Assembly: GCA_964391975.1 (NCBI GenBank)
Contig: CAYMNZ010000001.1
Span: 198,978-262,977, forward strand
DNA length: 64,000 bases
Reading direction: 5' to 3'
From: an uncultured Candidatus Saccharibacteria bacterium
GTDB taxonomy: Bacteria > Patescibacteriota > Minisyncoccia > Phycocordibacterales > Phycocordibacteraceae
Made by a program: the position numbers and the translations under genes
Notes under the pieces: model-generated
Told to the model about the DNA's origin: nothing
Seen by the model: the letters and a program-made list of their open reading frames with translations, nothing else
The model's database searches: none
In this document: positions 6,520 to 55,446 of the stretch, in pieces
How the letters are laid out: each line of letters starts with the position of its first letter
Numbering within the stretch: position 1 is the stretch's first letter

Positions 6520-7053
6520 ATGCACTTTGCTGATCCGACCGCCAACATCCTCCAAATGGGGCTTCGTGAGGGAATGAAGATTGCCGACCTTGGCGCCGGC
6601 TCTGGCCACTACGCTCTTGCGGCTGCAAATATCGCAGGGAAGAGTGGTCGCGTGTATGCCGTCGATGTTCAGGAGGATGTGTTGAAGCACATCCGGGACA
6701 AGGCTACAGACCGCGGACTTGCCAACGTCGATACCGTCTGGGGCAACATCGAGAAGCCAGGAGGCACCAAGCTCAAGGATGCGTCCATTGATGCAGTTAT
6801 CCTTTCAAACACGCTCTTCCAGCTCGAGAGCAAGGAAGCGGTAGTGACCGAAATTAAGCGCATTCTCAAACCCGGTGGCAGGGTGCTCGTGGTTGATTGG
6901 GCAGGCGCGTACGGGGGACTCGGTCCACACCCAGACCACGTTGTCCCAGAGGAGGTCGCGCAAAAGATATTCATTGACGCTGGATTCCATAAGCAGAAGG
7001 CCTTCAGCGGCGGTCCGCACCATTACTCACTTCTCTTTACTACTGCGCCATGA
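6520..7053 (+). CDS. class I SAM-dependent methyltransferase
   Basis: Motif I ADLGAGSGHYALAAA and ...ILKPGGRVLVVDW. Start moved to ATG 6520 (MHFADP...) to avoid overlap with gyrA and the terminator. Confidence 0.75.
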   Translation: MHFADPTANILQMGLREGMKIADLGAGSGHYALAAANIAGKSGRVYAVDVQEDVLKHIRDKATDRGLANVDTVWGNIEKPGGTKLKDASIDAVILSNTLFQLESKEAVVTEIKRILKPGGRVLVVDWAGAYGGLGPHPDHVVPEEVAQKIFIDAGFHKQKAFSGGPHHYSLLFTTAP

Positions 7054-8339
7054 AGCCCTTCCAAACCATCGTCCTTGTTGCGTGCGGGTTCCTCGCGCTC
7101 TTAGGCCTCTTTCTCTTCGCTACCTTCAATGGCGGAGGTAATGGTGGTGTGCCAGTAGGGCCCGTGACCATCTGGGGACCGCTTCCTGCTGACGCAGTGT
7201 ACGAGGGCATTGAGAACTTGAAGGGCACCAACAAGGAATTCCAAGAAATTACCTACATTGAGAAAGACCCAGCAACACTTGAGTCGGATCTTGCTGAGGC
7301 GCTTGCGGGAGGCTACGGTCCTGATCTCGTTATCATTTCGCAGGAACAGATTCTCTCGCAGGCAGGGAAGTTGAGCATCATTCCGTTTGAAAGTGTTTCA
7401 GAACGCACCTTCGTCAGTACGTATCTTCCAATAACCGAGCTCTATCTCACGGACACGGGCTTCTATGGCTTCCCGATTACGGTTGACCCCTTGGTCGTGT
7501 ACTACAACCGCACGCTCCTCTCCAACGCAGGACTTCCACTCCCACCAAACCTGTGGGAAGTGGTGACGGCGCTCGCCGACCGACTAACGCAACTGCAGCC
7601 AGATCAGAGCATTGAGAAGAGCGCGATTGCACTTGGTGAGTACGGGAACGTCGCCAACGCACGAGCCATCGTCTCGCTCCTCCTTCTGCAATCCGGAAGC
7701 ACTATCACCACCAAGGAAGCTGGACGAGTACGTTCAACGCTCTCTGCTGGAACGTCAGCAAGTGGGAATGCGCCTGCAGTGTCGGCTATGAACTTCTACA
7801 CACAGTTTGCAAACCCGGTGAAAACCGTTTACTCCTGGAACCGCTCCCTCCCGAACTCGCGCCTTGCGTTTCTTTCAGGCGACCTCGCGCTCTACATTGG
7901 CTTTGCGTCCGAACGGAAGTACCTTGCCGCTGCCAACCCCAACCTCGACTTCGACATGGCACCGATTCCGCAGCCAGGCACTGCAGCGAACCCTAAGACC
8001 TACGGACTTGCCTATGCGTTTGCGATTCCGAAAGCAGCAGCAAACTTTGAGGGAGCGTTCCGCACCGCCGTTGCCCTTACCTTCCATGACCCACTCAAGA
8101 TTATCTCGGAGGGCTCCGGTATGGCGCCAGCCCAGAGGGTGATGTTGAACGACACGCCGGACCGCTTTACTGAGCTTTTCTATCCGCAGGCACTTATCGC
8201 GTCCGGCTGGCTCTCCCCAGCACCTCGGGTAACTGACACAATCTTCTCTGCTATGATTGAAAACATAACCACCGGCCGGAAGGACGTAGCAGAGTCCCTC
8301 TCGTCGGCGGAACTGACCCTGAACGCGGCACTGCCATGA
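7050..8339 (+). CDS. extracellular solute-binding protein (ABC-type, family 1-like), N-terminal membrane anchor
   Basis: N-terminal TM/signal. PVTIWGPLPADAVYEG...GGYGPDLVIISQEQI...LSIIPFES resembles periplasmic-binding-protein fold. No permease or ATPase adjacent. Stop overlaps the start of the first pilin-like gene. Confidence 0.55.
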   Translation: MKPFQTIVLVACGFLALLGLFLFATFNGGGNGGVPVGPVTIWGPLPADAVYEGIENLKGTNKEFQEITYIEKDPATLESDLAEALAGGYGPDLVIISQEQILSQAGKLSIIPFESVSERTFVSTYLPITELYLTDTGFYGFPITVDPLVVYYNRTLLSNAGLPLPPNLWEVVTALADRLTQLQPDQSIEKSAIALGEYGNVANARAIVSLLLLQSGSTITTKEAGRVRSTLSAGTSASGNAPAVSAMNFYTQFANPVKTVYSWNRSLPNSRLAFLSGDLALYIGFASERKYLAAANPNLDFDMAPIPQPGTAANPKTYGLAYAFAIPKAAANFEGAFRTAVALTFHDPLKIISEGSGMAPAQRVMLNDTPDRFTELFYPQALIASGWLSPAPRVTDTIFSAMIENITTGRKDVAESLSSAELTLNAALP

Positions 8340-8968
8340 TTTCACGCCTCTCGTTCCTCATTCTCCTTTTTGCACTCTCGCTCGCGGTAGTACCGGTTTC
8401 AGCAGATGCGCTTGAGTGCGACGGACAGGTGTGTCTGCAGCCTGGCATGGTCTGTGCAGGACCTGAAGGCTCACAGTACTGTCAGTTGCCGGCAGCAGAA
8501 CCGACAGGTGTCTCTTGTGGTACTAAAACGTGTGATGGCGGGGAAATTTGCTGCAACGCACCTCAGTTCCCTAACGCGCCGTTCTGTTCAACGCAGTCCA
8601 CGTGTACTGCTATACAAAATCAGGCTACCCAGCCCAACACCACTCCTTCTCCCAGTACCGGAGACGTTACGGACAATAATAATAGTGAGGGAAGTAACAG
8701 CGGCGTCGCACTCATCAACCCGCTTAAGGTAGACACGGTCCCTGAGTTCCTCGCGCTCATCCTTGCAGCGGTCGTGAACCTCGGCACCATCATCCTCGTT
8801 CTCATGCTCGTGTATGTGGGCTTCCTCTTCGTGGTCGCGCAAGGAAACGAAGAGAAATTGCAGAACGCAAAATCCGCGCTTCTGTGGACGGTGGTGGGAG
8901 GTTTGGTGCTCCTTGGTGCCCAGGCCATCTCGCTTGTCATTCAGGCCACCGTAGGCAGCCTCCAGTAA
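8336..8968 (+). CDS. VirB2/TrbC-like pilin paralogue with N-terminal secreted Cys-rich domain
   Basis: Signal peptide. Cys-rich block (CDGQVCLQPGMVCAG...CGTKTCDGGEICC...). Ser/Thr/Asn linker. C-terminal two-TM module (LILAAVVNLGTIILVLMLVYVGFLFVVAQGNEEKLQNAKSALLWTVVGGLVLLGAQAISLVIQ) with the same topology as the following paralogues. Confidence 0.6.
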   Translation: MISRLSFLILLFALSLAVVPVSADALECDGQVCLQPGMVCAGPEGSQYCQLPAAEPTGVSCGTKTCDGGEICCNAPQFPNAPFCSTQSTCTAIQNQATQPNTTPSPSTGDVTDNNNSEGSNSGVALINPLKVDTVPEFLALILAAVVNLGTIILVLMLVYVGFLFVVAQGNEEKLQNAKSALLWTVVGGLVLLGAQAISLVIQATVGSLQ

Positions 8969-8971
8969 GCC

Positions 8972-9217
8972 ATGACCTTCGCCGACCTCGTCAACCAGCA
9001 CTTCGTTCCCTTCGTCGACTACGCGATTATCCCGCTTCTCTACGCGCTCGCGTTCATCTTCTTTCTTATCGGTATCGTACGTCTGTTGTTCTCGCTTGAG
9101 GAAGAGAAGCGCAACGAAGGCAAGAAGTTCGTGCTCTGGGGCCTTCTTGGCATGGTGGTGCTGTTTGCCGTCTGGGGCATTGTAAAGATGCTTCTCGGGG
9201 TCTTAACCGGTGCGTGA
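8972..9217 (+). CDS. VirB2/TrbC-like two-TM pilin paralogue
   Basis: 81 aa. TM1-charged loop (FSLEEEKRNEGKKFVLWG)-TM2 (LLGMVVLFAVWGIVKMLLGV). Shares motif with neighbours. Confidence 0.65.
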   Translation: MTFADLVNQHFVPFVDYAIIPLLYALAFIFFLIGIVRLLFSLEEEKRNEGKKFVLWGLLGMVVLFAVWGIVKMLLGVLTGA

Positions 9218-9707
9218 TACCATAATTCCTATGCAGCAACTTTCACTCTTCTTCATCAACATCGTCAAGATTATCGATGTGGTAATCGTGCCGGTCATCT
9301 TTTCGGTGGCCTTTGTGGTGTTCCTTTGGGGAGTATTCCGCTACTTCATCGCAGGGGCAGGCGACGAGGAGAAGCGCAAGGAAGGTCGCACGTTCATCAC
9401 CTGGGGCATCATTGGTTTCTTCCTTATGTTTGCCGTCTGGGGCATCGTGAACCTGCTCATCAACTCGCTTGGCTTTGATACAAAGACGCGCCCAATGCTC
9501 CCGCTCTTTGGTAGCGGAGGAGGGGCAGCGGGGGAACAGTATGCACAGGGTTACGCCGTCCAGAGTCAGGGTACGATCGGAGCAGGGATACCTCCAATCG
9601 GTGCAACCGCAGGAAGCTGTGGCGTCATGGGAGTCAGTGCGCTTGGCTTGTGCCCGCAGTACTTTGACTGCGTTAATAACGTCTGTACGAACCGAGACGG
9701 GGATTAG
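9210..9707 (+). CDS. VirB2/TrbC-like pilin paralogue with C-terminal Gly/Cys-rich tail
   Basis: Core VFLWGVFRYFIAGAGDEEKRKEGRTFITWGIIGFFLMFAVWGIVNLL plus tail ...CGVMGVSALGLCPQYFDCVNNVCTN. 8-nt overlap with the previous gene. Confidence 0.65.
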   Translation: MRDTIIPMQQLSLFFINIVKIIDVVIVPVIFSVAFVVFLWGVFRYFIAGAGDEEKRKEGRTFITWGIIGFFLMFAVWGIVNLLINSLGFDTKTRPMLPLFGSGGGAAGEQYAQGYAVQSQGTIGAGIPPIGATAGSCGVMGVSALGLCPQYFDCVNNVCTNRDGD

Positions 9708-9791
9708 TGTGTTTTCCACACAGCGCACTGACCTCTATTGACTCGTAGGTAAGGCGCCGTATCCTATACAAGTACTCACTACCCATATCTC

Positions 9792-10154
9792 ATGAACAAA
9801 CTCGCTTACATTGGTGCTGCCGCCTTGCTGCTCACTCCGCTTGCAACCTTTGCGGCCGTGACCAGCATCTACGACCTCGGCGCCCTCGTCCTCACCGTCA
9901 TCAACGACATTCTCGTACCGGTGGTGTTTGCTATCGCCTTTATCGTCTTTATTTGGGGCGTGTTCCGTTACTTCATCGCTGGCAAGCAGGATGAGGAGAG
10001 CCGTGAGAAGGGTAAGTCCCTCATGCTCTGGGGCCTCATTGGCTTCTTCGTGATGGTCTCGGTTTGGGGCCTCGTGAACATCCTTGTGGGCACCTTGGAC
10101 CTCAACACCAACGTTCCGAACTTCCCGGACACTCCAATCCCAACGCGCCGCTAG
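9792..10154 (+). CDS. VirB2/TrbC-like pilin paralogue (signal peptide + two-TM core)
   Basis: Signal peptide MNKLAYIGAAALLLTPLATFA. Core IVFIWGVFRYFIAGKQDEESREKGKSLMLWGLIGFFVMVSVWGLVNILV. Confidence 0.7.
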   Translation: MNKLAYIGAAALLLTPLATFAAVTSIYDLGALVLTVINDILVPVVFAIAFIVFIWGVFRYFIAGKQDEESREKGKSLMLWGLIGFFVMVSVWGLVNILVGTLDLNTNVPNFPDTPIPTRR

Positions 10155-10171
10155 TAGGCGTTCTCCACTCA

Positions 10172-10200
10172 AGAAACCCCGCGCGAGCGGGGTTTCTTGC
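10172..10200 (+). terminator. Rho-independent terminator
   Basis: aaccccgc-gcga-gcggggtt stem-loop followed by TCTTGCTACTAT. Confidence 0.5.
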
Positions 10201-10212
10201 TACTATAGGCCT

Positions 10213-10476
10213 ATGCAATTGAGTGGTGTCTTCTGCGGCTTCATCGACCCGGCTATTCATGTCGTGTTGATTCCGGCAATCTTCACCATGTCCTTCATCG
10301 CGTTTTTATGGGCGGTTTTCTACTACGCTATTGCGGGTGAGTATGATGAGTTTGCTCGTGAGATGGCCAAAGGTCTCATGCTCTGGAGCATTATGGCCTT
10401 CTTTGTGATGGCGGCGCTCTGGGGCGTAATTGAGGTCATCTACGGTTGGCTCGGCATCAGCAGTGCTATGTGCTAA
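10213..10476 (+). CDS. VirB2/TrbC-like two-TM pilin paralogue
   Basis: Start trimmed to ATG 10213 (MQLSGVF...). Core IAFLWAVFYYAIAGEYDEFAREMAKGLMLWSIMAFFVMAALWGVIEVI. Confidence 0.6.
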   Translation: MQLSGVFCGFIDPAIHVVLIPAIFTMSFIAFLWAVFYYAIAGEYDEFAREMAKGLMLWSIMAFFVMAALWGVIEVIYGWLGISSAMC

Positions 10477-10492
10477 TGCTATACTTTTCTCT

Positions 10493-10765
10493 ATGAACCC
10501 TCCTGATCCATTGCCAAGCGACGGTACTAACTTCTTCAAAAATCTTGAAGTCGCTATTATTGACCCGCTCATTACGCTTCTCGCCCTTGCGGCCTTTGTG
10601 GTCTTTGTGTGGGGTGTCGTTGAGTTCATCCGCGGAGCGGACAACCAGGAGGCACGCAGCAAGGGCCAGAAGCACATTATCTGGGGCTTGATTGGACTCA
10701 CTATTATCTTTGGTGCTCGCGCTATCTTGGCGCTCATCAACACCACAGTCTCGGGGTTTAACTAG
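10493..10765 (+). CDS. VirB2/TrbC-like two-TM pilin paralogue
   Basis: Start trimmed to ATG 10493 (MNPPDPL...). Core VVFVWGVVEFIRGADNQEARSKGQKHIIWGLIGLTIIFGARAILALI. Confidence 0.6.
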   Translation: MNPPDPLPSDGTNFFKNLEVAIIDPLITLLALAAFVVFVWGVVEFIRGADNQEARSKGQKHIIWGLIGLTIIFGARAILALINTTVSGFN

Positions 10766-10847
10766 TGCTGGGAAGAGGACTCGAACCTCCATGCCTTTCG
10801 GCGCCACGTCCTAAGCGTGGTGCGTATACCAATTCCGCCATCCCAGC
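10766..10847 (-). tRNA. tRNA-Leu (anticodon TAG)
   Basis: Reverse complement gctgggatggcggaattggtatacgc...cttagga...long variable arm...ggttcgagtcctcttcccagca. Anticodon loop CTTAGGA. Long variable arm typical of Leu. Confidence 0.8.
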
Positions 10848-10893
10848 GTTTTTATAGAGTACACGTTCTCTCGCATTTTGTCCGCACCGCTTC

Positions 10894-10969
10894 TGGTGCG
10901 CCCACCAGGGCTCGAACCTGGGACCTTATCCTTAAGAGGGATCTGCTCTACCAACTGAGCTATGGGCGC
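10894..10969 (-). tRNA. tRNA-Lys (anticodon CTT), CCA encoded
   Basis: Reverse complement gcgcccatagctcagttggtagagcagatccctcttaaggataaggtcccaggttcgagccctggtgggcgcacca. Anticodon loop CTCTTAA. Good D- and T-arms. Confidence 0.85.
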
Positions 10970-11018
10970 GCTGGTCTGAATACTATCGGACTTGTGCAAA
11001 TTCTTCAACCACTTTGTG

Positions 11019-11102
11019 TGCCGAGGGTGGGACTCGAACCCACACGACATTACTGCCTGGGGATTTTAAGACCCCTATGTCTACCAATTCCATCACCTCG
11101 GC
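11019..11102 (-). tRNA. tRNA-Leu (anticodon TAA)
   Basis: Reverse complement gccgaggtgatggaattggtagacataggggtcttaaaatcccc...long variable arm...gggttcgagtcccaccctcggca. Anticodon loop CTTAAAA. Confidence 0.75.
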
Positions 11103-11156: not shown

Positions 11157-13277
11157 ATGGATGGTCTCCAAGCACGTGGTATCGAATTGCCGGAAGTACC
11201 GGAGGGATTCGAGCGCCGCAATGGCGTGCTTGTGCCGATTGAGAAACCCAAGGAGGAGGGAATTGTAGGTGCTTCCCCTGATGACGTACAGAGAGTAGAA
11301 AGATTCAAAACGGACACAGGTAAGGAGGCGAGGCGTGAGTGGGAAGAAAGGATTGGGTTGCCAGTCAACGTGTTTAAATCCCCAGACTCCGCACTGGTAA
11401 GCGACAAGCTCTTTGCGGCCATCTGCAGGAAGGCGAATCTCAAGTGGCATGCTAGTTTCGCCGCAAACCTCACCCAACAGGTGCTGGAGGTGCGCAAGCA
11501 TCCCTACGAGGTATTCTCGGGTCTTCCAGTAGAGCTTGAGCGTGCGGAGGCGCGCGCTTTCTTCGCTGCCGCCTCCGACCTCTATCGTTCGTATGCGCCC
11601 GAGTTCGCACAAAGCCAAGTCGCTCGCACCTCTTTCTTTACGCCTCTGTTCTTCTTCACAAAGCTGGGCTCCATACCGGAGGAGGCAGATAATCTCTGGA
11701 GCCCCCACCTTATCGAGTTTGCCGTTGAGCAGCTACCAGCCCTTCCAACGAGCGAGCCGTCATACGCCATTGCGAAAGGACTGCTCAAGATGAACCTCGA
11801 GCGGTTAGGAAAAGAAGAGATACAGTCCGTACTGGGCACACTCGCACGGAATCAGGACCTCCATACCGATCTAGCGTTGCTTATAGCTGAGCGTACCAAA
11901 AAGGATTTCAAGGAACTTATTCCGGGCTATACAGCTCCTGACGAGGGGATGTGGGAACTTGCTCCCGAAGAGCTCGTCGCCAATGCCGCGACCTACGCGA
12001 AGCATGCGTCGACTGAAGGGCTTGGTACTTTTAAGCAAGCTTCGAAAGTTGGGTATGAGTTTGAGTTCCTCCAAGACGGAGACAACGATACACTCAGCAC
12101 TCGAATCGCCACGGAACTGAAAGGACTCTCCGTGGTCGACCTCCGCAATGTGCATGCTGACGGCAGCGTGACAGAGATGAAGACGGGCGAAAGGGGGGTG
12201 CCGTTCACTCGCACTCAAGCAATCGAGCTGCTCAAGCTCGGGCAGGTGCTTGAGCGTAACCAGCACGCGGTAGCGCTGGCTTCGATACACATAAACCTGG
12301 ATTACTTACATAAAAGGGCCAGTGCGTTCGATTTCGCAAACTACTACTACGATGAGAGATGTGAATTCAAGGGCACTCGCACGCCAATTGCACGACTCGA
12401 TACGCCGTATCTGAACGAAATGTCGATTCTGCTTGATGAGACTGCGGTGCTTGGAGGTCTCTATGATGTGCTGAGTAAGGACGACCTGCGTGAATTCGTG
12501 CGACGCAAGACGGCAGGAATGCCGCTCTCAGAAATCCTCTCGCCCGCGTTTGGACCGCATGAACTGGAATGCGAGTACCTTATTGGCGCCTGCCAGGACT
12601 CCAATCAGTTCCATCTAGTTCCGGCTGTACTGCGCCTGTACGCACAGAATGCTGTACCTCGAACGCTTATGGCCCAAGAGATGCTGTTTGCGGTAGAAGA
12701 CTCGAGAGAGACTGCCTCTGTGCCTTGGGGTCCGCACCTTATCCAGTATTTCGTTCGGGATATGGGTGGAGAAGTGGGGCAGCTGTCTATCGCTAAAGCA
12801 CTCGATTCGATACCTGCTGAAGCGTTCTTCGCTATCACCCGCATCATGCATAGGCAAATGAATAAGGCATTTCTCTTAATACTCGTTGATAAAATGCCGT
12901 CGTGTACCTTCGCGCAGGCGGTGAGCACACTTCAAAATCCGTATATCGATAGCAGCGTCAGGAAGGCCCTCATTGAGAAACTGGAGCCCATTTCCTTTAC
13001 GCCTGAGGTTCGATTGTTCTTGTCGGGTAAGAGCAAGTCCGGCGATTCAATCGAAAAAAATGTACGAGTAGCTCTAGCGCAAAAGATTCAGAACCTTACG
13101 TTTGCGGAGGCAAAGGAATATCTTACGGATGCGCAGAATAATTCCCCATTGGTGCAGACGGCTGTGGCCGAACAGATTATTGACGCCGCGGGAAACCAAG
13201 AAGTCAGGGAGGTCGTCGAGGGGGGTGCGGATGTGTACGCCTCGGTCGCTGATGTACTCGAGCGAAAACTCGGTTGA
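11157..13277 (+). CDS. large hypothetical protein with central GS/amidoligase-like motif
   Basis: 706-aa ORF. Central block VGYEFEFLQDGDNDT...HADGSVTEMKTGERGVPF...ASIHINLDY resembles the G-x-E-x-E / H-x-N signature of the glutamine-synthetase/amidoligase (carboxylate-amine ligase) fold. Long N- and C-terminal extensions are unassigned. Confidence 0.55.
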   Translation: MDGLQARGIELPEVPEGFERRNGVLVPIEKPKEEGIVGASPDDVQRVERFKTDTGKEARREWEERIGLPVNVFKSPDSALVSDKLFAAICRKANLKWHASFAANLTQQVLEVRKHPYEVFSGLPVELERAEARAFFAAASDLYRSYAPEFAQSQVARTSFFTPLFFFTKLGSIPEEADNLWSPHLIEFAVEQLPALPTSEPSYAIAKGLLKMNLERLGKEEIQSVLGTLARNQDLHTDLALLIAERTKKDFKELIPGYTAPDEGMWELAPEELVANAATYAKHASTEGLGTFKQASKVGYEFEFLQDGDNDTLSTRIATELKGLSVVDLRNVHADGSVTEMKTGERGVPFTRTQAIELLKLGQVLERNQHAVALASIHINLDYLHKRASAFDFANYYYDERCEFKGTRTPIARLDTPYLNEMSILLDETAVLGGLYDVLSKDDLREFVRRKTAGMPLSEILSPAFGPHELECEYLIGACQDSNQFHLVPAVLRLYAQNAVPRTLMAQEMLFAVEDSRETASVPWGPHLIQYFVRDMGGEVGQLSIAKALDSIPAEAFFAITRIMHRQMNKAFLLILVDKMPSCTFAQAVSTLQNPYIDSSVRKALIEKLEPISFTPEVRLFLSGKSKSGDSIEKNVRVALAQKIQNLTFAEAKEYLTDAQNNSPLVQTAVAEQIIDAAGNQEVREVVEGGADVYASVADVLERKLG

Positions 13278-20634: not shown

Positions 20635-21684
20635 ATGAAGCGAACGCTCGCGTACCTCCTGGCCTTTGTGCCGCTGTTAGTGCTTACCGTTCCTGGAACT
20701 GCCTCCGCTGCATTCTGGGGACCTATCGTCGATGGTCGTTGCCTTTGCCCAGGTTCAGCACCGGACTACGGCTGCGTGATTCAGACCATTCAAAACACCA
20801 TGAACCTCGGGGTGTCGCTTGCGGTGGTGATTGCAACGCTCGTTATTGCATACGCAGGCGCCATCTGGCTCGTCTCCCCGGTTAATCCTAAGAGCCGTGA
20901 GATGGGACGCACCATGCTCCTTAATGCCGTCATAGGGCTTGTGGTGTTGCTTGCGGGATGGATCTTCGTCGACTTCCTTATGAAGCAGCTCTACAACGAG
21001 AGCGCCAACTCCAACGGCGTGCAGCTCGGGCCATGGAACGAGATTCTTGCGCCAAGTGCAACAGGCGACGATATGTGTATCGAGCGTCGGACTGAGTTCG
21101 GACAGAATACTCCCAGCACCCCGAGTACCGGGGGAACTGGAACGGTAACTACACCTGGTGATGACGATGACGACGACGATACCCCAACGCCCACCCCATC
21201 ACCTCAATCATGTACAGTGACCGATAGTAAATCCGCATGTGGTGGCTTCTATATCCAGACGGCATGTGGTACTTCGCATAACACAAACGTCAAAAATCTC
21301 GTAGACGCTGGGGTCCGTGGTCAATCAACCGGAAGCTGCTGTATGAAAAACAATGACTCGTGCACTTCGCTTGATGGCATAAGTTCAAATGCGATAAACC
21401 TGATTCGTAATCTTCAGGAGGATTACGGGGGAGTATTAATAACGGGTGGTACTGAAACTGGTCACACGAACCACGGTTACAACAGGAGTTTTGATATGGG
21501 CATCTCCGCGGCGGGCGATGCTGCAATTCGTGCGCTCCCACGCGCGACCGCAGAGCAAAGAGACTGCCATGACATTTTGAGTACCAATGTCTACGCATCC
21601 ACGGGATCGGGTGCCTCCTATTTCGATGAGGGCGGTCACTGGCACGTCACAGTCGGAGGGTTCTCTTCTTGTTTGCCTGACTAG
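20635..21684 (+). CDS. pilin-like two-TM module fused to Asp/Thr-Pro linker and C-terminal Cys-rich domain with LAS-type Zn-peptidase motifs
   Basis: Start at MKRTLAYLLAFVPLLVLTVPGTASA (signal peptide). Two-TM core VIATLVIAYAGAIWLVSPVNPKSREMGRTMLLNAVIGLVVLLAGWIFVDFL. DDDDDDDTPTPTPSP linker. C-terminal domain with 10 Cys and GHTNHGYNRSFDMG (H-x6-D) ... GGHWHV (H-x-H). Confidence 0.6.
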   Translation: MKRTLAYLLAFVPLLVLTVPGTASAAFWGPIVDGRCLCPGSAPDYGCVIQTIQNTMNLGVSLAVVIATLVIAYAGAIWLVSPVNPKSREMGRTMLLNAVIGLVVLLAGWIFVDFLMKQLYNESANSNGVQLGPWNEILAPSATGDDMCIERRTEFGQNTPSTPSTGGTGTVTTPGDDDDDDDTPTPTPSPQSCTVTDSKSACGGFYIQTACGTSHNTNVKNLVDAGVRGQSTGSCCMKNNDSCTSLDGISSNAINLIRNLQEDYGGVLITGGTETGHTNHGYNRSFDMGISAAGDAAIRALPRATAEQRDCHDILSTNVYASTGSGASYFDEGGHWHVTVGGFSSCLPD

Positions 21685-24952: not shown

Positions 24953-25858
24953 CTAAGAGCTTCGCAGACGTCGGAGCACGGTCTCCAGAGTTTTTCTCAT
25001 ATCCTTCGGGAGCGATAGTTCCGTAAGGGATGCGCGTGTCTGTAAATTTCCCGTAAGTATCGAAGAAAGCGAGAATCCGGTCTCTGCGCGAATGGTGCGG
25101 TCGATGTTGTTTGTGGTAAGCGCTCGAAGGCTCACCAGCTCTTTGGCCTTGTCGCCTCCCATAGTCGTGGCGATGCCAACGAGCGCACCAGAGGAATCGA
25201 CTACTGGTCCGCCCGAAACTCCCTTGTGTCCAGCTTTTGATGGGGCGACAAGAAGGATGTCTTGGTTTGGTTTAGTGAAAGAGCGAATGTCAGTCACGGT
25301 TGAAGAGGCGACAATGCGCTTCAACTTACTCTTCACACCATCGAAGTCGAGCCTGTCTGCAGGATAGCCGGCAATCGAGACGGCCATGCCGCTTGTGGTC
25401 ACAGTGTTTAGTGGAAGCGCCGGAAAGACCGTTCCAGGTTTAGCGTCCGTAATGTAGAGGAGGGTGAAATCGCTATCACCGGTTCCTTTGCCTTCGGTCT
25501 TTGTTGCTACCTTGCTTTGATACTGCTCGGTCCACGAAAGCGGCATGTAGAGAAGTTCGGCATGGTACATCTCCTTGGCAGGAGAACCAGTGCGAATGGA
25601 GCAGCGGTTCTTACTCTTGGAGTCGGTTGAGGAGGCGAGAAGGAAATACTGTGCGACGTGGGCATTCGTAATGATGACACCTCGACTGTCGACGAAAGAA
25701 CCGGTGCCTGTAGTCTGGAAGGTTGCGCCGCCTACTTTCATGCGGCAGAAGACGTTTACGGTCGCCTTCTCAAGTGGCGTCTCTATGGGTGCAGTCTTAG
25801 CGTCTGCGCCCAAGGGAAGCATGAGTACAAACAGTACGAGTACGAGAAGTTTTTTCAT
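24953..25858 (-). CDS. secreted trypsin-like serine protease (S1 family)
   Basis: Start trimmed to MKKLLVLVLFVLMLPLGADA (signal peptide) so it does not overlap the tRNA. Catalytic triad contexts ITNAHV (His), DFTLLYI (Asp), GVSGGPV (Ser). Confidence 0.75.
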   Translation of the reverse strand: MKKLLVLVLFVLMLPLGADAKTAPIETPLEKATVNVFCRMKVGGATFQTTGTGSFVDSRGVIITNAHVAQYFLLASSTDSKSKNRCSIRTGSPAKEMYHAELLYMPLSWTEQYQSKVATKTEGKGTGDSDFTLLYITDAKPGTVFPALPLNTVTTSGMAVSIAGYPADRLDFDGVKSKLKRIVASSTVTDIRSFTKPNQDILLVAPSKAGHKGVSGGPVVDSSGALVGIATTMGGDKAKELVSLRALTTNNIDRTIRAETGFSLSSILTGNLQTRASLTELSLPKDMRKTLETVLRRLRSS

Positions 25859-25861
25859 ATG

Positions 25862-25947
25862 TGGTGCCGGAGGAGGGAGTCGAACCCTCAACCCTTGCGG
25901 GAACGGGTTTTGAATCCGTCGCGTATACCAATTCCGCCACCCCGGCT
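25862..25947 (-). tRNA. tRNA-Leu (anticodon CAA), CCA encoded
   Basis: Reverse complement gccggggtggcggaattggtatacgcgacggattcaaaacccgt...long variable arm...gggttcgactccctcctccggcacca. Anticodon loop TTCAAAA. Confidence 0.8.
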
Positions 25948-26002
25948 TGTGGATTATCCTACGCGCGAACGCCCGTGCCTGCAATGCGCGTGATAGAATT
26001 GC

Positions 26003-35577: not shown

Positions 35578-36606
35578 ATGAGTCACCAGTCCCTCTATAG
35601 GGCGTATCGTCCGCAGTCCTTCAAGGAAGTTGTGGGACAGGAGCAGGTTACGGCACCACTTGCCGAACAGATTAAAGGAAAGACGGTAGGACATGCGTAT
35701 TTGTTCGCCGGGTCTCGTGGTCTTGGAAAAACCTCTGTTGCGCGCATCTTTGCGGCTGAGCTTGGAGTCACTGAGAAGGATTTGTATGAGATTGATGCTG
35801 CAAGCAACAACAGCGTCGACATGATTCGAGAGCTGAATGCGAACGTATTTACGCTTCCCTTTGAATCTCCATACAAGCTCTACATTCTGGATGAGGTGCA
35901 CATGTTCTCGAAGGGAGCATGGAATGCGTTTTTGAAGACGCTTGAGGAGCCGCCAGCGCACGCGATGTTTGTGCTTGCGACCACCGAGCTCGATAAGGTG
36001 CCGGAGACGGTGCAGTCTCGATGCCAGGTGTTTGAGTTCCGTAAGCCATCGCGTGCCGGACTCATGAAGATTGTGTCTTCTGTTTCCAAGAAGGAAGGAT
36101 ACGAGATAGAGCCTGCTGCTGCTGATTTAATTGCGCTTCTGGCTGATGGTTCTTATCGTGATGCGCTTTCGGTGCTTGAGCGAGTGTTCGCGTCTTCTCC
36201 TGACAAGAAGGTGACTCGTGAGGAAGCTGAGAAGGCTACCGGAGCGCCAAAGCGCGTGCTGGTAACGGCTCTCGCTTCTGCATTGTCTGCTGGTTCCGTT
36301 GATGCCGCTCTCACCGCTATTCGTCGGGCAGCTTCCGAGAATGTGGATATGAAGATGTATTTGTCGCTCGTCCTTGAGTACCTGCGGAGCGTGTTGCTTG
36401 TTCGTCACGCCACTGAACTGCGCAAGGAGATTGCAGAGGAAGTAGGGGCTGATGAATACGCGGAGATAGAGAAGCTTGCCATGGATAAAGAATCCAAGCT
36501 TACTCACGCAACACTTCGTACGTTTTTGGATGCAGCAGCCCGTGTGCGCTTTGCACCAGTGCCTGCGCTTCCGCTTGAGCTTGCAGTGCTTGAGCTCTAC
36601 TCGTAA
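35578..36606 (+). CDS. dnaX: DNA polymerase III subunit gamma/tau (short form)
   Basis: YRAYRPQSFKEVVGQEQV...GHAYLFAGSRGLGKTSVARIFA...LDEVHM clamp-loader AAA+ motifs. 342 aa. Confidence 0.85.
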   Translation: MSHQSLYRAYRPQSFKEVVGQEQVTAPLAEQIKGKTVGHAYLFAGSRGLGKTSVARIFAAELGVTEKDLYEIDAASNNSVDMIRELNANVFTLPFESPYKLYILDEVHMFSKGAWNAFLKTLEEPPAHAMFVLATTELDKVPETVQSRCQVFEFRKPSRAGLMKIVSSVSKKEGYEIEPAAADLIALLADGSYRDALSVLERVFASSPDKKVTREEAEKATGAPKRVLVTALASALSAGSVDAALTAIRRAASENVDMKMYLSLVLEYLRSVLLVRHATELRKEIAEEVGADEYAEIEKLAMDKESKLTHATLRTFLDAAARVRFAPVPALPLELAVLELYS

Positions 36607-37496
36607 TGCTGACGAAAGTTACCGGACCACTCATTCTTATTGCAGCGGTAGTAGCCGTCGGGTACTCGGTATCTGAGCTCGAGCTCTTTGCTGAACCGTG
36701 TGCGGAGCCGGTGGAATACCACGTGGGCACCATAGACCCGCGCTATGGGATATCGAATGCTGAGCTTGCTGCTGATTTGGCGCAGGTAGCAGCACTGTGG
36801 AATACGGCTGCGGGGAAAACGGTGGTGACTTTCGCTGCTGATGGAGAGGTTGCAGTGAATCTTGAATACACTGAAGAGCAGGCAACGTCTGAGCTTGGAG
36901 TGGTAATCGACCAGCAGCAAGCAGATTACGATAAGGCGCAGGCGCAGTTTGAAATACTGGCAGACCAACTGGATTCTGCAAAGAATACGTATGAGCGGCT
37001 CGAAGCCTCCTTCAATGTGAAGGCGGATATGTACGAGAACGATGTTGCGTATTGGAACGCACGCGGAGGTGCGCCTCCTGCAGAGTACGAAAAGCTTCAA
37101 GCAATGCAGCGGCAGCTTGATCGGGAACAAGCTGCGCTCAACGCTCAGGCAGCAAAGGTGAACGCTGTGGTTGATGAGATGAACAACAAGGTGGATGCCT
37201 TAAACAGGATGGCGGACGCCATTAATTCTCGGGTGGATGTGTATAACGCCAACTCACACACTGAGTTCGACCAGGGCCGCTATATAGAAGATGAGAAAGG
37301 GAAGCGCATTACGATTCGGGAGTTCACCGAAGAGATTGAGCTCAAGCGTGTGCTGACGCATGAATTAGGGCATGCCATTGGTCTTAACCACGTAGAGGAC
37401 CCTGATTCCATCATGTATTCCTTTAACGCAGGGGATGAGCTGGTCCTCACCGAGGAGGATATAGCTGAGCTAAAGAACGTCTGCGAGCTTGATTAG
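36606..37496 (+). CDS. membrane-anchored matrixin-like zinc metalloprotease with coiled-coil insertion
   Basis: N-terminal TM. C-terminal HELGHAIGLNHVEDPDSIMY (HExxHxxGxxH + Met-turn). A ~150-aa Ala/Gln-rich coiled-coil segment separates the N-terminal part from the zinc motif. Confidence 0.65.
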   Translation: MLTKVTGPLILIAAVVAVGYSVSELELFAEPCAEPVEYHVGTIDPRYGISNAELAADLAQVAALWNTAAGKTVVTFAADGEVAVNLEYTEEQATSELGVVIDQQQADYDKAQAQFEILADQLDSAKNTYERLEASFNVKADMYENDVAYWNARGGAPPAEYEKLQAMQRQLDREQAALNAQAAKVNAVVDEMNNKVDALNRMADAINSRVDVYNANSHTEFDQGRYIEDEKGKRITIREFTEEIELKRVLTHELGHAIGLNHVEDPDSIMYSFNAGDELVLTEEDIAELKNVCELD

Positions 37497-41222: not shown

Positions 41223-41957
41223 ATGACTACCACCCCTTTCATGAAGGCGGGGACAGCTCTCGGGCTCTCCCTCGCTCTTCTCGTAGGTTTTGTGCCAGTG
41301 CTTCCCGCTGCGGCAGCCTATGAGGAACCTCCCATAGGATATTTTTCCTCGCATGACGACGATGAAGATGAAGACGAGGATAATGACCGGTACAGCCGTT
41401 ACTCCTCTCGCCGCACAAGCTATTCGAGCTCCATTCAGAGGAAGGTAAACAACCTTGATGACGACGAAGTGGAGAACCTCCCAATTCCTATCCTTATCGG
41501 TGTGGGGCTCAATAATATTTGGCCAAACTTCGGAGATCCTCGCGATGGAGGTGCCCGCACGCACGAAGGAGAGGACATCATGGCTCCACGTGGCGCGATT
41601 GTTTCCTCACCAACTGAGGCAGTGGTCGTGCGCACTGGCGAAGGCTCAAGTTCCGGCATCTATGTCACCACCGCTAACCCGGGAGGCGAGTCCATGAACT
41701 TCTACCACCTCGACAGCATTGCTGAAGGTATTAAGGCTGGAACGGAAGTTAAAGCAGGAGACATTCTGGGGTACGTAGGAAATACGGGGAACGCTTCAGG
41801 CGGAGCGCCGCATCTCCATTTCGAGATTCGCAAGAACCGAAGGGCACTCGACCCGTTCCCACGTCTCACCAAAGAATTCTCAAATGAAGTGCGCGTACGT
41901 GTTCTCACTGATCTTTTGAAGGAACTACAGGCTGAACTAGCGAAAAAGTTGCGCTAG
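41223..41957 (+). CDS. secreted M23-family (LytM/lysostaphin-like) metallopeptidase
   Basis: Signal peptide. Acidic repeat (DDDEDEDEDND). Catalytic HEGEDI (HxxxD) and HLHFE (HxH) motifs. Confidence 0.8.
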   Translation: MTTTPFMKAGTALGLSLALLVGFVPVLPAAAAYEEPPIGYFSSHDDDEDEDEDNDRYSRYSSRRTSYSSSIQRKVNNLDDDEVENLPIPILIGVGLNNIWPNFGDPRDGGARTHEGEDIMAPRGAIVSSPTEAVVVRTGEGSSSGIYVTTANPGGESMNFYHLDSIAEGIKAGTEVKAGDILGYVGNTGNASGGAPHLHFEIRKNRRALDPFPRLTKEFSNEVRVRVLTDLLKELQAELAKKLR

Positions 41958-43461: not shown

Positions 43462-44508
43462 ATGGAACGGGTCTTGTATACCTTCGACGACGTGCTCATC
43501 GCTCCGGCGAGAAGCGCTATTGAGCCTTCCGCGGCCGTCGTCGGCTCTGCCGCTTGCCGCGGCCTTTTTCTTAGAGTGCCTGTGCTCTCTGCTGCTATGG
43601 ACCGCGTCACTGACGCGAGAATGGCCATTGCGGTTGCCAAGGCTGGTGCGCTCGGTGTACTCCATCGCAACTGCACCAAGGAGGAACAGGCGAAGATGGT
43701 GGCCCAGGTTAAGAAGGCAGGTGTGCTGGTTGCTGCTGCTTGCGGGCCATTTGATATGGAGCGAGCGATGCTGCTCGCTAAGAACGGAGCTGATGTCATC
43801 ATCATTGACTGCGCCCACGGCCACAACATGAAGGTGCTTAAAAGCGCTAAGGCCATCAAAGCAAAGCTTCCAAAGAAGGTGAAGATGATTGTGGGCAACA
43901 TCGCTACCGCAGAGGCAGCCGCAGATATCATCAAGATGAACTTTGCTGATGGGCTTAAGGTTGGCGTTGGTCCGGGCTCCATCTGCACCACGCGCCTTGT
44001 TTCTGGAGTTGGTATGCCACAGCTCACTGCGGTCATGGATGTCGTGAAGGTTGCAAAGAAAGCAGGCATCCATGTCATTGCCGACGGAGGCATGAGGACC
44101 ACCGGAGATATCGCTAAGGCACTTGCTGCAGGCGCTTCAGCTGTAATGAGCGGCAACATGTTCGCAGGCACCATTGAAACTCCAGGACGCATCGTCACGA
44201 AGAACGGAAAGAAGTTTAAGGAATACCGCGGTATGGGTTCTAAGCCAGTTATCGGAGGTGACTCAGGTTCACAGCGTTATCTCACCAAGGGACGCAAAGC
44301 AGTACCAGAAGGTGTTGTCGGTCTCGTACCACTTAAGGGAACGGCAGAAGATGTCGTTGCTGAGATTTCTTCAGGTGTACAGGTTGCTATGGGCTACGTT
44401 GGTGCCAAGGACATCCCTGAGTTCCAGAAGAAGGCGAAGTTCATCCGCGTGACGCTCGCCTCAACGGTTGAGGGCAGGCCGCACTCGCTTTCGGAAGTTA
44501 TAGATTGA
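43462..44508 (+). CDS. IMP dehydrogenase/GMP reductase family protein lacking CBS subdomain
   Basis: TIM-barrel with catalytic loop GVGPGSICTTR. 348 aa with no CBS pair, the size typical of GuaC or CBS-less GuaB. Confidence 0.8.
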   Translation: MERVLYTFDDVLIAPARSAIEPSAAVVGSAACRGLFLRVPVLSAAMDRVTDARMAIAVAKAGALGVLHRNCTKEEQAKMVAQVKKAGVLVAAACGPFDMERAMLLAKNGADVIIIDCAHGHNMKVLKSAKAIKAKLPKKVKMIVGNIATAEAAADIIKMNFADGLKVGVGPGSICTTRLVSGVGMPQLTAVMDVVKVAKKAGIHVIADGGMRTTGDIAKALAAGASAVMSGNMFAGTIETPGRIVTKNGKKFKEYRGMGSKPVIGGDSGSQRYLTKGRKAVPEGVVGLVPLKGTAEDVVAEISSGVQVAMGYVGAKDIPEFQKKAKFIRVTLASTVEGRPHSLSEVID

Positions 44509-44565
44509 CACCTCTCGTAAGTCCTCTATACTAGGGCTTTAATGACCTCCACGGCATTAAATCGA

Positions 44566-44592
44566 AACACCTCACAGGAGGTGTATTTTTTT
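44566..44592 (+). terminator. terminator/possible attenuator hairpin directly upstream of carA
   Basis: acacctc-acag-gaggtgt stem followed by ATTTTTTTA. The U-tract ends about 9 nt before the carA ATG. Confidence 0.5.
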
Positions 44593-44600
44593 ATCCTGCC

Positions 44601-45644
44601 ATGAAGCTCTATTTAGAGAACGGTTCGAGCTTCGAGGGAGAGAGTTTCGGCGCTAACGTCGCAGTCTCTGGAGAAGTGGTCTTCAACACCGGTATGGTGG
44701 GCTATGTGGAGACACTTTCCGACCCTTCGTACTCCGGTCAGATAGTTGTGCTCACCTATCCGCTCGTTGGCAACTATGGTGTGCCGAGCGAGAAGCAGTT
44801 TGAGAGCGAGAAGATTCACGCAGCAGGACTTGTGGTCTCTGAGTACTGCGACGAGTACTCTCACCATGAGGCAAAGGAGTCACTCAAGGAGTGGTTGAAG
44901 CGCTCAGGCGTCCCAGCAATCACTGGTGTGGACACCCGCGCCATCACCAAGGTGCTGCGCGAGAAGGGCGTGATGCTCGGACAGCTTGGTGGCACCAAGA
45001 AAGGGAAGTTTGTTGACTCCAACAAGGTGAATCAGGTTGCCATTGTGAGCCCCAAGAAGAAGAAAGAGTATGGAAATGGTCCGATGCGCATCGTGCTCGT
45101 TGATTGCGGCGCAAAGGAAAACATCATGCGTTCCATCTTGACTCCCGACACGACCGTCATTCGCGTGCCGTGGGATTACGATTTCACACAGGAGAAATAC
45201 GACGGCATTGTGCTCAGCAACGGTCCTGGCGACCCGGTAGAGTGCACCGCCACCGTCGAAAACGTACAGAAGGCACTCAAGGGAGATAAACCGATTCTCG
45301 GCATTTGCCTTGGCATCCAAATGCTCGCACTTGCTGCAGGAGGAAAGACCTACAAGCTCAAGTACGGACACCGCGCACAGAATCAGCCGTGTGTGGCAGG
45401 TAAGCGCTGCTACATCACGAGTCAGAATCACGGCTACGCAGTGGATGCCAAGTCACTCCCTAAAGAATGGAAGATTTGGTTCACCAACGCTAACGATGGC
45501 AGTGTTGAGGGTATCTATCACACCAAGAAGCCATTTCGCGCGGTGCAGTTCCACCCAGAAGCATGTCCGGGACCAACCGACACGAACTGGCTCTTCGATG
45601 ACTTCCTCAAGGAGGTGAAGAAAAGTAAGAAAAAGCTCGTATGA
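44601..45644 (+). CDS. carA: carbamoyl-phosphate synthase small (glutaminase) subunit
   Basis: N-terminal CPSase small domain plus class I glutamine amidotransferase (GICLGIQ..., HPE). Confidence 0.95.
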   Translation: MKLYLENGSSFEGESFGANVAVSGEVVFNTGMVGYVETLSDPSYSGQIVVLTYPLVGNYGVPSEKQFESEKIHAAGLVVSEYCDEYSHHEAKESLKEWLKRSGVPAITGVDTRAITKVLREKGVMLGQLGGTKKGKFVDSNKVNQVAIVSPKKKKEYGNGPMRIVLVDCGAKENIMRSILTPDTTVIRVPWDYDFTQEKYDGIVLSNGPGDPVECTATVENVQKALKGDKPILGICLGIQMLALAAGGKTYKLKYGHRAQNQPCVAGKRCYITSQNHGYAVDAKSLPKEWKIWFTNANDGSVEGIYHTKKPFRAVQFHPEACPGPTDTNWLFDDFLKEVKKSKKKLV

Positions 45645-48600: not shown

Positions 48601-48844
48601 TACGCTCCTTGATTCCGGAAAGCTTGATTTGATTATCAACATCGCTGCGCGCGGTCTTGCACGTCCTGAGAACTCGAAGGGCTCACTCTCTGACGGCTTC
48701 ATTATTCGTCGCAAAGCGGTAGATCTCAATATTCCGCTCATCACGAACCGTCAGCTAGCGGAAGGATTCATCAACGCACTCGAGGAAATGAACGGGAAGA
48801 CAATCGAGGCGAAGGCGTGGGACGAGTACACAACGGAGGACTAG
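45641..48844 (+). CDS. carB: carbamoyl-phosphate synthase large subunit
   Basis: 1067 aa. Duplicated ATP-grasp halves (MKPKKVLILGSGGLRIGQAGEFDYSGSQA... and ...VMVLGSGSYSIGSSVEFDW...) and C-terminal MGS-like domain. Confidence 0.95.
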   Translation: MKPKKVLILGSGGLRIGQAGEFDYSGSQAIKVLKEEGIQSVLINPNIATVQTDKGLADRVYFLPLTEHFATEVIKKERPDAIFLSFGGQTALNLGLALEKSGVLKKYGVRVLGTPVSTIRDTEDRELFVKRLNQIQVKTARSKATANVAEARKAATMIGYPVMVRSGFALGGEGSGLVRDEKELVDKLTDVFHTNKQVLIEEYLLGWKEVEYEVVRDKDDNCITVCNMENLDPMGVHTGESIVVAPSQTLTNDEYHMLREVAIKTIRHLGIVGECNIQYALHPKTGDYRVIEVNARLSRSSALASKATGYPLAFVAAKLALGHVLPELKNSVTGTTTACFEPALDYIVIKMPRWDLDKFGNAAPRIGTEMKSVGEVMAIGRSFEEVLQKGIRMLNIGADGFTAQRSKRYKFDDYLKEIKEPTTRRIFAIAEALRKGVSVEKIHQLSNIDLWFLKKLEHIVELEKKIKRKPLTKDLLVEAKKNGFSDIQLATIKGKTEEAVRTLRRRLKVFPVIKQIDTLAGEVPAKTNYLYLTYHGTEDDVKPGKKSVMVLGSGSYSIGSSVEFDWSSVEALKTLKAKGYETIMVNYNPETVSTDYDMSDRLYFDELSLERVLDIVGFEKPKGTVVSTGGQIPNNLALKLFENGVKVLGTSPKNINRAEDRHVFSALLDRLGVDQPEWAELSTPKEAARMAAKMGYPVLIRPSYVLSGAAMSVALDEVGLIKFLEKAVGVSSDHPIVISKFIENAREIEIDGVAQNGKLKIYAITEHVENAGTHSGDATLVLPAQRTYIETIRRAKSITKGIIKELNITGPFNMQFLAKDNKLQVIECNVRASRSFPFVSKVTGYNFIELAIQAMLGQDITGEYRTLELDYVAVKSPQFSYGRIKGADPLSYVEMASTGEVAAFGDSYAEALLKSMMAAGFKLPKKNVLVSLGKEENKIKLLPSVETLHRMGFHIYATEHTADFLKQNNIPCERVYKIKSGGNPNVLTLLDSGKLDLIINIAARGLARPENSKGSLSDGFIIRRKAVDLNIPLITNRQLAEGFINALEEMNGKTIEAKAWDEYTTED

Positions 48845-49098
48845 ACCTTCTGGAAACGGAGTTCCCCGTCATCTCCTGGAAGAAACCATTCTTCAAGCGT
48901 CCGCACGAAAGGGAGGAATTTTCCGTACCGCGCTGTATAGAGGACACAGACTTCACCACCGTAGCGAGAATAAGCATACCCAGTTACCAGGTACTGGTTC
49001 CCGTTTTTGTAATGCTGATAGAGGCCGAGCGGTACGCGCGCTGCAGCCTCCGTCAATAGAGCTTCAAGTTCCTCTTCCGACCGTAGATGTTCACTCAT
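48841..49098 (-). CDS. DUF1653-like small protein
   Basis: ...YQHYKNGNQYLVTGYAYSRYGGEVCVLYTARYGK... Start trimmed to MSEHLR to avoid a 40-nt divergent overlap with the helicase gene. Confidence 0.5.
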   Translation of the reverse strand: MSEHLRSEEELEALLTEAAARVPLGLYQHYKNGNQYLVTGYAYSRYGGEVCVLYTARYGKFLPFVRTLEEWFLPGDDGELRFQKV

Positions 49099-49129
49099 GG
49101 GGAAAGTATAACTGATACAATACCCCTCC

Positions 49130-50788: not shown

Positions 50789-50798
50789 GCTTCAGTAT

Positions 50799-51299: not shown

Positions 51300-51313
51300 T
51301 AGAATAGGGGCTA

Positions 51314-52348: not shown

Positions 52349-52350
52349 CT

Positions 52351-53424: not shown

Positions 53425-53425
53425 T

Positions 53426-54645: not shown

Positions 54646-54647
54646 CC

Positions 54648-55445: not shown

Positions 55446-55446
55446 C

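Follow-up and report, generated by a model that had tools for sequence, protein, structure and literature searches.

A tandem array of six genes on the forward strand of a 64,000-nucleotide (nt) stretch of DNA, hereafter the window, probably encodes the VirB2-like pilin set of a filament or conduit that depends on a type IV secretion system (T4SS) encoded elsewhere in the genome; the fourth gene (g4) would provide the major subunit, and the first and third (g1 and g3) would display surface modules. This assignment is drawn from sequence comparisons. The source is a Paceibacteria (Patescibacteria/Candidate Phyla Radiation) metagenome-assembled genome (MAG). The array spans window positions 8336-10765, and six same-strand genes with one common core, as proposed in an earlier sequence-only reading of this DNA, were confirmed:

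8336-8968, forward strand: g1, position-1 pilin, 210 amino acids (aa)
8972-9217, forward strand: g2, minimal pilin core, 81 aa, no signal peptide
9231-9707, forward strand: g3, pilin core with a Gly/Cys-rich tail, 158 aa from the ATG (GTG at 9210 is an alternative start)
9792-10154, forward strand: g4, candidate major subunit, 120 aa
10213-10476, forward strand: g5, minimal pilin core, 87 aa, called at these coordinates by the gene caller
10493-10765, forward strand: g6, minimal pilin core, 90 aa (TTG at 10430 is an alternative start)

Hydropathy analysis revealed a core of two hydrophobic helices and a short charged loop common to all six genes, with pairwise core identities of 18-54% (mean 34%). 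The ratio of nonsynonymous to synonymous divergence (dN/dS) of the cores, calculated against the related lineage L002 (GyrA 98.7% identical, dS about 0.5-1.8), was 0.00-0.09, indicating purifying selection, and the array genes are therefore real and constrained rather than chance open reading frames (ORFs). Two sequence motifs that had been attributed to every copy proved to be more restricted: instead of F(R/Y)YFIAG throughout, F(R/Y)Y(F/A)IAG is found solely in g3, g4 and g5, and instead of a second-helix ending WG(I/L)V throughout, WG(I/L/V)(V/I) is found solely in g2-g5. Similarly, of the proposed topology of a signal peptide followed by a hairpin with two transmembrane (TM) segments, the hairpin holds for all six proteins and the signal peptide for g1 and g4 only; g2, g3, g5 and g6 start about 10-25 residues ahead of helix 1 and have no signal peptide. 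Gene starts were chosen from gene calls on the source contig and on a related genome. The TTG-start versions of g5 (10084) and g6 (10430) are probably over-extended ORFs: the leaders that they add are non-hydrophobic, and the g5 version spans the terminator-like hairpin described below. On the 742-kb JGI source contig the gene caller took a 158-aa antisense shadow ORF (window 9243-9728, reverse strand) instead of g3, which was called correctly on a related NCBI assembly. Since the antisense ORF replaces g3, the public annotation of the array is incomplete and includes five pilins, not six.

Profile searches, suggested with the sequence-only reading as a check, assigned five of the six proteins to the T4SS pilin family PF18895 (T4SS_pilin) above the curated Pfam gathering score of 26.6 bits: g1 (35 bits), g2 (37), g3 (40.4), g4 (44.7) and g6 (31). 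The remaining protein, g5, scored 16.7 bits, under the gathering score, and is 43% identical to g4 over 72 aa (BLASTP, E=1e-24). More than 1,000 homologues of g4, all of them PF18895 proteins, were found in Patescibacteria/Paceibacterota, and one protein of a Ca. Pacebacteria MAG is identical to it; PF18895 matches were consistent across every family member. The direct relationship to TrbC/VirB2 (PF04956, gathering score 27.9) is weaker. The best scores of 15.5 bits (g1, E=0.02) and 14.3 bits (g6) did not reach the gathering score, and weak matches in 15 of 51 g4-type relatives (best E=0.0016) were no better than those to unrelated membrane families, while a precomputed PF04956 match is present in many g1-type homologues. 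Eight VirB2/TrbC genes from plasmids with mating-pair formation systems of type T (MPF_T), seven annotated and one recovered via tblastn only, were taken for profile comparison with hhalign. The g1-type profile aligned in register with MPF_T VirB2 over the whole hairpin (59 columns, E=3.8e-4), with a probability of only 36%; the g4-type profile gave a probability of 0.3% and no alignment; homology between the g1-type and g4-type profiles is clear (95%). No pilin, whether VirB2, TraA or another, was retrieved from the PDB, all chains of which were searched by sequence and by profile with the g4-type and g1-type families. The g1 core had no tblastn match among 72,556 plasmids, and g6 showed a weak Pfam match to Maff2.

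The NCBIfam family NF045849, pilin-like proteins of mycoplasma integrative and conjugative elements (ICEs), was matched by all 51 g4-type members at E<=1e-3 (best E=2.4e-11). The g4 of the window scored 37.8 bits (E=1e-9), under the 40-bit equivalog cut-off, and the array genes are related to NF045849 without being members of it, given this score and a chromosomal block that is not an ICE. These results suggest a closer sequence relationship with the pilin-like family of mycoplasma ICEs than with VirB2 of diderms, which agrees with the MPF_FATA ancestry published for the T4SS of Patescibacteria. AlphaFold models of the monomers, another proposed check, consist of a signal helix and a long alpha-helical hairpin for both g4 and g1. 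The class-III leader G↓F(T/S)LxE is absent from all seven pilin proteins of the window (the six of the array and a solitary one described below), as had been noted for G/FTLIE. Altogether, the identification as VirB2/TrbC pilins is supported via PF18895, the hairpin models and the literature, whereas direct similarity to TrbC/VirB2 stays under the cut-off. The earlier interpretation was right, and the kind of feature is already known because such arrays have been published for Patescibacteria.

The fourth gene differs from its neighbors in conservation and in its flanking sequences:

9710-9721, forward strand: TGTTTTCCACAC motif, just past the g3 stop and upstream of the g4 promoter
9738-9765, forward strand: sigma-70-like promoter-like site of g4 (TTGACT, 16 nt, TATCCT; consensus scan)
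10160-10168: GTTCTCCAC, related to TGTTTTCCACAC, just 5' of the hairpin and after the g4 stop
10170-10199, forward strand: terminator-like hairpin after g4, 13 bp, GC-rich, -33.2 kcal/mol, z=-5.6

The g4 protein starts with a signal peptide and continues with a two-helix hairpin and a Pro-rich tail of 20 aa; its AlphaFold2 (AF2) model (predicted local distance difference test, pLDDT, 81.8) has helices at residues 3-21, 26-63 and 68-102. The cleavage consensus of the orthologues, AFA↓Q, resembles the AxA↓Q site of VirB2, and g4-type orthologues vary little in length across species (116-141 aa). The protein is 100% identical in L002 and L004 (dN=0), compared with 98.7% for gyrA and 94% for the solute-binding-protein-like (SBP) gene preceding the array; the other pilins are 97.5% (g2), 94% (g6), 92% (g5), 78% (g3) and 62% (g1) identical to their L002 counterparts. 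The g4 promoter sequence is also identical in L002 although the flanking genes have a dS of ~1, and TTGAC(G/T) with TATCCT is conserved in the g4 upstream regions of 74 species. In the alignment of these 74 regions TGTTTTCCACAC is at least 60% conserved. Of 71 species, 70 have a comparable hairpin (-15 kcal/mol or below) behind the g4-type gene and 7 have one behind position 3, and compensatory changes were found at all seven consensus pairs. Directly after the hairpin lies TTGCTACTAT, with a conserved TGCTAYYAT that resembles an extended -10 element. The T(T/C)TCCAC motif past the stops of g3 and g4 is kept in many species, with CTCCAC downstream of g4 in 36 of 72 loci.

Gene spacing follows the same division. 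The SBP gene and g1 share a 4-nt ATGA overlap, as expected from the translational coupling that had been proposed for them, g1 and g2 are 3 nt apart, and the g2-g3 and g5-g6 gaps are short; the g3-g4 gap of 84 nt holds the promoter-like site and the g4-g5 gap of 58 nt holds the hairpin. The array is not one simple operon of overlapping or abutting genes, as had been claimed: the description holds for the SBP-g1-g2-g3 and g5-g6 junctions, but not for the two gaps that flank g4. We infer three transcription units (methyltransferase-SBP-g1-g2-g3, g4, and g5-g6), with g4 as a putative abundant major subunit.

Whereas g4 is invariant, g1 and g3 carry extensions of the kind that the sequence-only reading had described, and both were verified. 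In the first protein a signal peptide, likely cut after ADA (…SADA↓L), precedes a small beta-rich domain with 10 Cys, and a disordered S/T/N/P linker leads from there to the invariant NPL motif and the two-helix core. The AF2 model of g1 (overall pLDDT 71.6) shows strands within residues 39-85, pLDDT <50 at 101-123, and helices at 135-167 and 172-209. The third protein ends in a Gly/Cys-rich tail with 4 Cys. Relative to L002, dN is 0.49 in the N-domain of g1 and 0.026 in its core, with the divergence located in the signal-peptide-proximal Cys-rich domain and the linker; the g3 core is nearly invariant and its divergence is confined to the C-terminal tail. The Cys-rich extensions of the two proteins diverge ~19-fold faster than their cores. 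Position-1 orthologues range from 85 to 338 aa across species, those of position 3 are extended at the C terminus by 14-114 aa that include up to 8 Cys, and several g1 variants occur alongside an identical g4 in different samples. A surface filament whose tip or accessory domains vary, the idea put forward in the sequence-only reading, would fit such fast-evolving extensions, which are predicted to be extracellular.

The array forms part of a conserved chromosomal block that also includes the following genes:

6520-7053, forward strand: class I S-adenosylmethionine-dependent methyltransferase, 177 aa, Pfam Methyltransf_11/25/31, with a stop that overlaps the SBP start by 4 nt
7050-8339, forward strand: SBP gene, 429 aa, SBP_bac_1/SBP_bac_8 (52.4 and 48.8 bits)
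10765-10847, reverse strand: tRNA-Leu(TAG), identified with ARAGORN, marking the downstream end of the conserved block

The SBP protein has an N-terminal hydrophobic membrane anchor (residues 1-29), and its homologues were found in 80 GTDB species representatives (43-94% identical). In 75 of 77 evaluable loci the SBP homologue is followed, after no more than a few nucleotides, by a PF18895 array; the methyltransferase lies directly upstream in all 79 evaluable species, and gyrA lies further upstream in 66 of 67 loci. Downstream order is not conserved, with infB within 5 kb in 11 of 50 loci. Most arrays contain five genes (48 of 57 loci), eight contain six and one contains seven. The block is conserved in about 78 species with a fixed order, g1-type first and g4-type fourth, and the paralogues therefore predate the radiation of the group. 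The six genes are ancient, position-specific paralogues and not recent duplicates, five being the usual number and six that of the source clade. Three convergent tRNA genes (Leu-TAG, Lys-CTT and Leu-TAA; 10765-11102, reverse strand) close the block. Beyond them, an ORF at 11157-13277 (forward strand, 706 aa) without a family match is absent in L002, 631 aa long in L003 and present in 1 of 50 species loci, and L002 has an IS1595 transposase near this tRNA-side position; the region beside the tRNAs looks like a variable spot.

Each of the proteins is a membrane hairpin of two helices joined by a short charged loop. In the proposed mechanism, their predicted orientation leaves the loop on the cytoplasmic side and both termini on the outside, so that the g1 N-domain with its many Cys residues and the Gly/Cys-rich tail of g3 would be extracellular. 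The invariant g4, with its signal peptide and its position between a conserved promoter and a terminator-like hairpin, would be the major structural subunit. Minor subunits g1 and g3 would display, by way of flexible linkers, surface modules that evolve fast and probably contain disulfide bonds, and the minimal core subunits g2, g5 and g6 would act as adaptors or initiators. After insertion in the membrane, the subunits would be extracted and polymerised by a VirB4-type T4SS encoded elsewhere in the genome, and we infer that a pilus, or else a short conduit, may form through the monoderm envelope and contact a host cell, serving an epibiotic cell for attachment, exchange or both. A conserved partner would be the SBP-like protein, which is anchored in the membrane and probably co-transcribed.

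Several observations weigh against this mechanism. Similarity to experimentally characterised VirB2 pilins falls under every curated threshold, a hairpin this simple gives fold searches no power to discriminate between families, and the absence of a signal peptide in four of the six proteins is unlike canonical VirB2. According to the literature on patescibacterial T4SS (PMC12857230), a pilus has been seen in no Patescibacterium. The dN/dS of the variable domains is at most 0.3, not >1, with dS near saturation, so that only faster evolution, not positive selection, can be claimed for the g1 and g3 extensions. Neither virB4 nor virB3 nor virB6 was recognised among the annotated large ORFs of the window or of the 10 kb beyond either end, and the statement of the sequence-only reading that VirB4, VirB6 and VirB11 are missing from the window was borne out. 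With no virB4 in reach, the proposed T4SS dependence is drawn from the name of the family and from published work rather than from linked genes. Moreover, the synteny of the SBP gene is no tighter than that of gyrA and the methyltransferase; gene order alone is no proof of an SBP-pilin function, and the SBP-pilin link is suggestive only.

In one alternative the proteins would be T4SS components that build no extended pilus, namely membrane-embedded or stalk-like channel subunits (VirB2/VirB3-like) of a monoderm MPF_FATA-type machine, parallel to the role assumed for the small membrane proteins of mycoplasma ICEs. We regard this as unlikely. The firmest sequence link of the array is indeed to the mycoplasma family NF045849 (51 of 51 members), mycoplasmas have no wall, related ICE coding sequences have been described as VirB3-like, Gram-positive T4SSs are generally without pili (PMC12102498), and the four proteins without signal peptides are minimal hairpins. 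A purely intramembrane role is nevertheless hard to reconcile with five to seven distinct, ordered paralogues, with a separately transcribed invariant subunit, or with long extracellular extensions made of linker and domain, and VirB3/PrgI homologues have been detected in Patescibacteria apart from the PF18895 proteins.

A second explanation removes the T4SS altogether: 'T4SS pilin' would be a family name only, and the hairpins and the SBP-like protein would form a membrane or surface complex such as an unconventional uptake or adhesion device. The methyltransferase-SBP-pilin block, conserved in about 78 species far from any virB4, and the weak direct similarity to VirB2 speak for it, as does the finding that no cognate ABC permease or ATPase gene for the SBP is present in the window. 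Yet VirB2-like genes lie next to virB4 in 1135 of the 1948 Patescibacteria assemblies with both genes (PMC12102498), the array of Ca. Southlakia epibionticum belongs to a T4SS locus according to the account in PMC12857230, and the family matches an ICE conjugal-transfer family; the synteny of the SBP gene may be passive, the housekeeping gene gyrA being equally syntenic. This explanation is considered rather improbable. Readings of the array proteins as holins, bacteriocin-immunity proteins, membrane toxins of toxin-antitoxin systems or type IV (PilA-like) pilins have in their favor that the proteins are small membrane hairpins with stray sub-threshold matches (to the TsaT toxin and DUF membrane families), but they are effectively refuted by the consistent PF18895 matches of every family member, the lack of a prepilin leader, a core chromosomal site that is flanked by gyrA and a tRNA cluster in dozens of species and under strong purifying selection, and the outcome for the holin explanation, for which no holin, lysis or other phage family match (PHROGs, Pfam) was obtained with the six proteins.

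The T4SS-dependent pilin set is the preferred explanation, and a bolder version of it, which is speculative and unlikely, can be formulated. In Paceibacteria the methyltransferase-SBP-pilin block might encode a dedicated organelle for host contact or uptake: a heteromeric VirB2-like filament with one invariant major and four to six specialised minor subunits, in which the hairpins anchor swappable extracellular modules (the g1 Cys-rich domain, the g3 tail, and a conserved, enzyme-like His/Asp-rich domain in the seventh pilin described below) and the SBP, as an integral partner, links a T4SS-type pilus to the capture of host nutrients.

Two further genes of the window are relevant to the T4SS context:

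20635-21684, forward strand: seventh, solitary PF18895 protein, 349 aa, 28.4 bits, adjoining miaA
56803-59550, forward strand: VirD4/TraD-like ATPase resembling type IV coupling proteins (T4CPs), 915 aa, no N-terminal TM segment

In the seventh pilin a signal peptide precedes the pilin core (aa 50-115), which a poly-Asp/Thr-Pro linker joins to a conserved C-terminal domain of ~125 aa rich in Cys and His; a similar gene lies beside miaA in L007. Invariant residues of the C-terminal domain are C, C, T, E, G, H, H, D and H ('TGGTExGH..SHGxGxKxD', 'EGxHWD'). The domain has 234 homologues, and 16 of 40 sampled homologues are joined to T4SS_pilin cores. It had no Pfam, PHROGs or PDB sequence match, and a LAS/M15-like zinc hydrolase is a guess at the level of motifs. 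The ATPase matched Pfam DUF87 (33.9 bits) and TraG-D_C (23.4 bits), carries precomputed annotations of DUF8128 and DUF87, showed weak NCBIfam matches to TraD and to the VirD4-like CD1115 family, and had no PDB sequence match. It agrees with published T4CP homologues of Patescibacteria, which are common and usually distant from virB4. Ahead of it lies a small membrane protein of the Phage_holin_4_2 family (56405-56734), and it is followed by two large acidic proteins without a family match (59553-60896, 447 aa; 61498-63573, 691 aa) with a gene for an FKBP-type isomerase between them. Peptidase genes of the window encode a trypsin-like protein (24953-25984, reverse strand), a matrixin-like Peptidase_M10 (36606-37496, forward strand) and a Peptidase_M23 (41223-41957, forward strand); the latter could bear on cell-wall remodelling near a T4SS and is not linked to the array.

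Nucleotide-biosynthesis genes form a run at 43462-56349 (forward strand) that covers de novo pyrimidine synthesis almost completely (aspartate carbamoyltransferase, carbamoyl-phosphate synthase large chain, dihydroorotase, dihydroorotate dehydrogenase, phosphoribosyltransferase and orotidine monophosphate decarboxylase) and also contains inosine monophosphate dehydrogenase. This run is notable given that Patescibacteria are usually described as being without de novo nucleotide synthesis (PMC12857230). About 5-7 kb past the window end (L010 16170-18976), genes with Citrate_synth_N/Citrate_bind and Succ_CoA_lig/Ligase_CoA/Citrate_synt domains are ATP-citrate-lyase-like, which is unexpected in a reduced genome.

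Tandem VirB2-like pilin arrays were already published for Patescibacteria in 2023-2025, and the locus adds no new kind of system. New details are the conserved SBP-linked operon architecture, the promoter/terminator bracket of g4, the fast-evolving extensions of g1 and g3, and the affinity to pilin-like proteins of monoderm ICEs. Passages of PMC12857230 describe the role of pilin arrays and the T4SS in Patescibacteria as essential in the single tested species and their function as 'completely unknown'. Paceibacteria are the largest class, and the locus offers a clean comparative picture of ordered paralogues, a candidate major subunit and an SBP neighbor. Filaments could be looked for with g4 as the target, and tests of host binding or uptake could address g1, g3 and the SBP. 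The monoderm ICE affinity bears on whether the pilins arrived with MPF_FATA-type machinery or were co-opted later.

Among known systems, the archaeal Ced/Ted DNA-import pili are a precedent for conjugation-type, VirB2-like pilins that are used for import and not export in a non-diderm envelope (Beltran et al. 2023, PMC9905601); they belong to a different domain of life. The virB2 paralogues of Anaplasma and Bartonella share tandem amplification and variation, read as surface variation or broadened host interaction in work cited in PMC12102498. However, those copies are recent, similar to each other and found in diderm pathogens, whereas the paralogues of the source are ancient and positionally fixed, with variation in the appended domains of two subunits. 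Diderm VirB2/TrbC proteins (PF04956; A. tumefaciens VirB2) resemble the array proteins in small size, two hydrophobic helices and a short polar loop, and g1 and g4 have a probable signal peptide cleavage site of the AxA type; the source proteins differ in a longer, highly charged loop and in the four copies without signal peptide, and the organism is monoderm. The VirB2 gene of the eight MPF_T plasmid loci (seven annotated) lies between a virB1-like gene and virB3, unlike the source array, which has gyrA, the methyltransferase, the SBP gene and tRNAs as neighbors and no adjoining virB1, virB3 or virB4. The best curated match outside Pfam is to Mbov_0395 and MMCAP2_0565 (NF045849, mycoplasma ICEs), which are likewise small two-TM proteins of a monoderm, MPF_FATA-like system; in contrast to these ICE proteins, the source genes belong to the chromosomal core, have multiplied to 6-7 paralogues and in some cases carry extracellular domains.

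The closest counterparts are the arrays of Patescibacteria themselves. Quinonero-Coronel et al. (2025, PMC12102498) reported VirB2-like pilins in 1,948 Patescibacteria assemblies and defined an array as at least two PF18895/PF04956 genes in tandem or one non-pilin gene apart in a Patescibacteria genome, and they counted 441 arrays of 2-11 genes with a mean identity of 25% and a maximum of 54%. The source MAG is not among the assemblies in the supplement of that study. Its six consecutive genes form an array by the same definition, and their mean core identity (34%) and maximum (54%) are similarly low. The published arrays are most abundant in Microgenomatia and Saccharimonadia, while the present one is from Paceibacteria, where it lies within the gyrA-methyltransferase-SBP-array block and not beside virB4. 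SBP linkage, fixed positional orthologues, the promoter/terminator bracket and Cys-rich extensions are not mentioned in PMC12102498, and a full-text literature search retrieved no paper joining an SBP with such arrays. A pilus in a monoderm is still treated as only a possibility (PMC12857230). Ca. Southlakia epibionticum ML1 also has a six-pilin array, essential by transposon sequencing (Wang et al. 2023, as cited in PMC12857230), and the source array is like this one and the arrays of PMC12102498 in family (PF18895), in phylum and in its tandem, sequence-divergent two-helix pilins.

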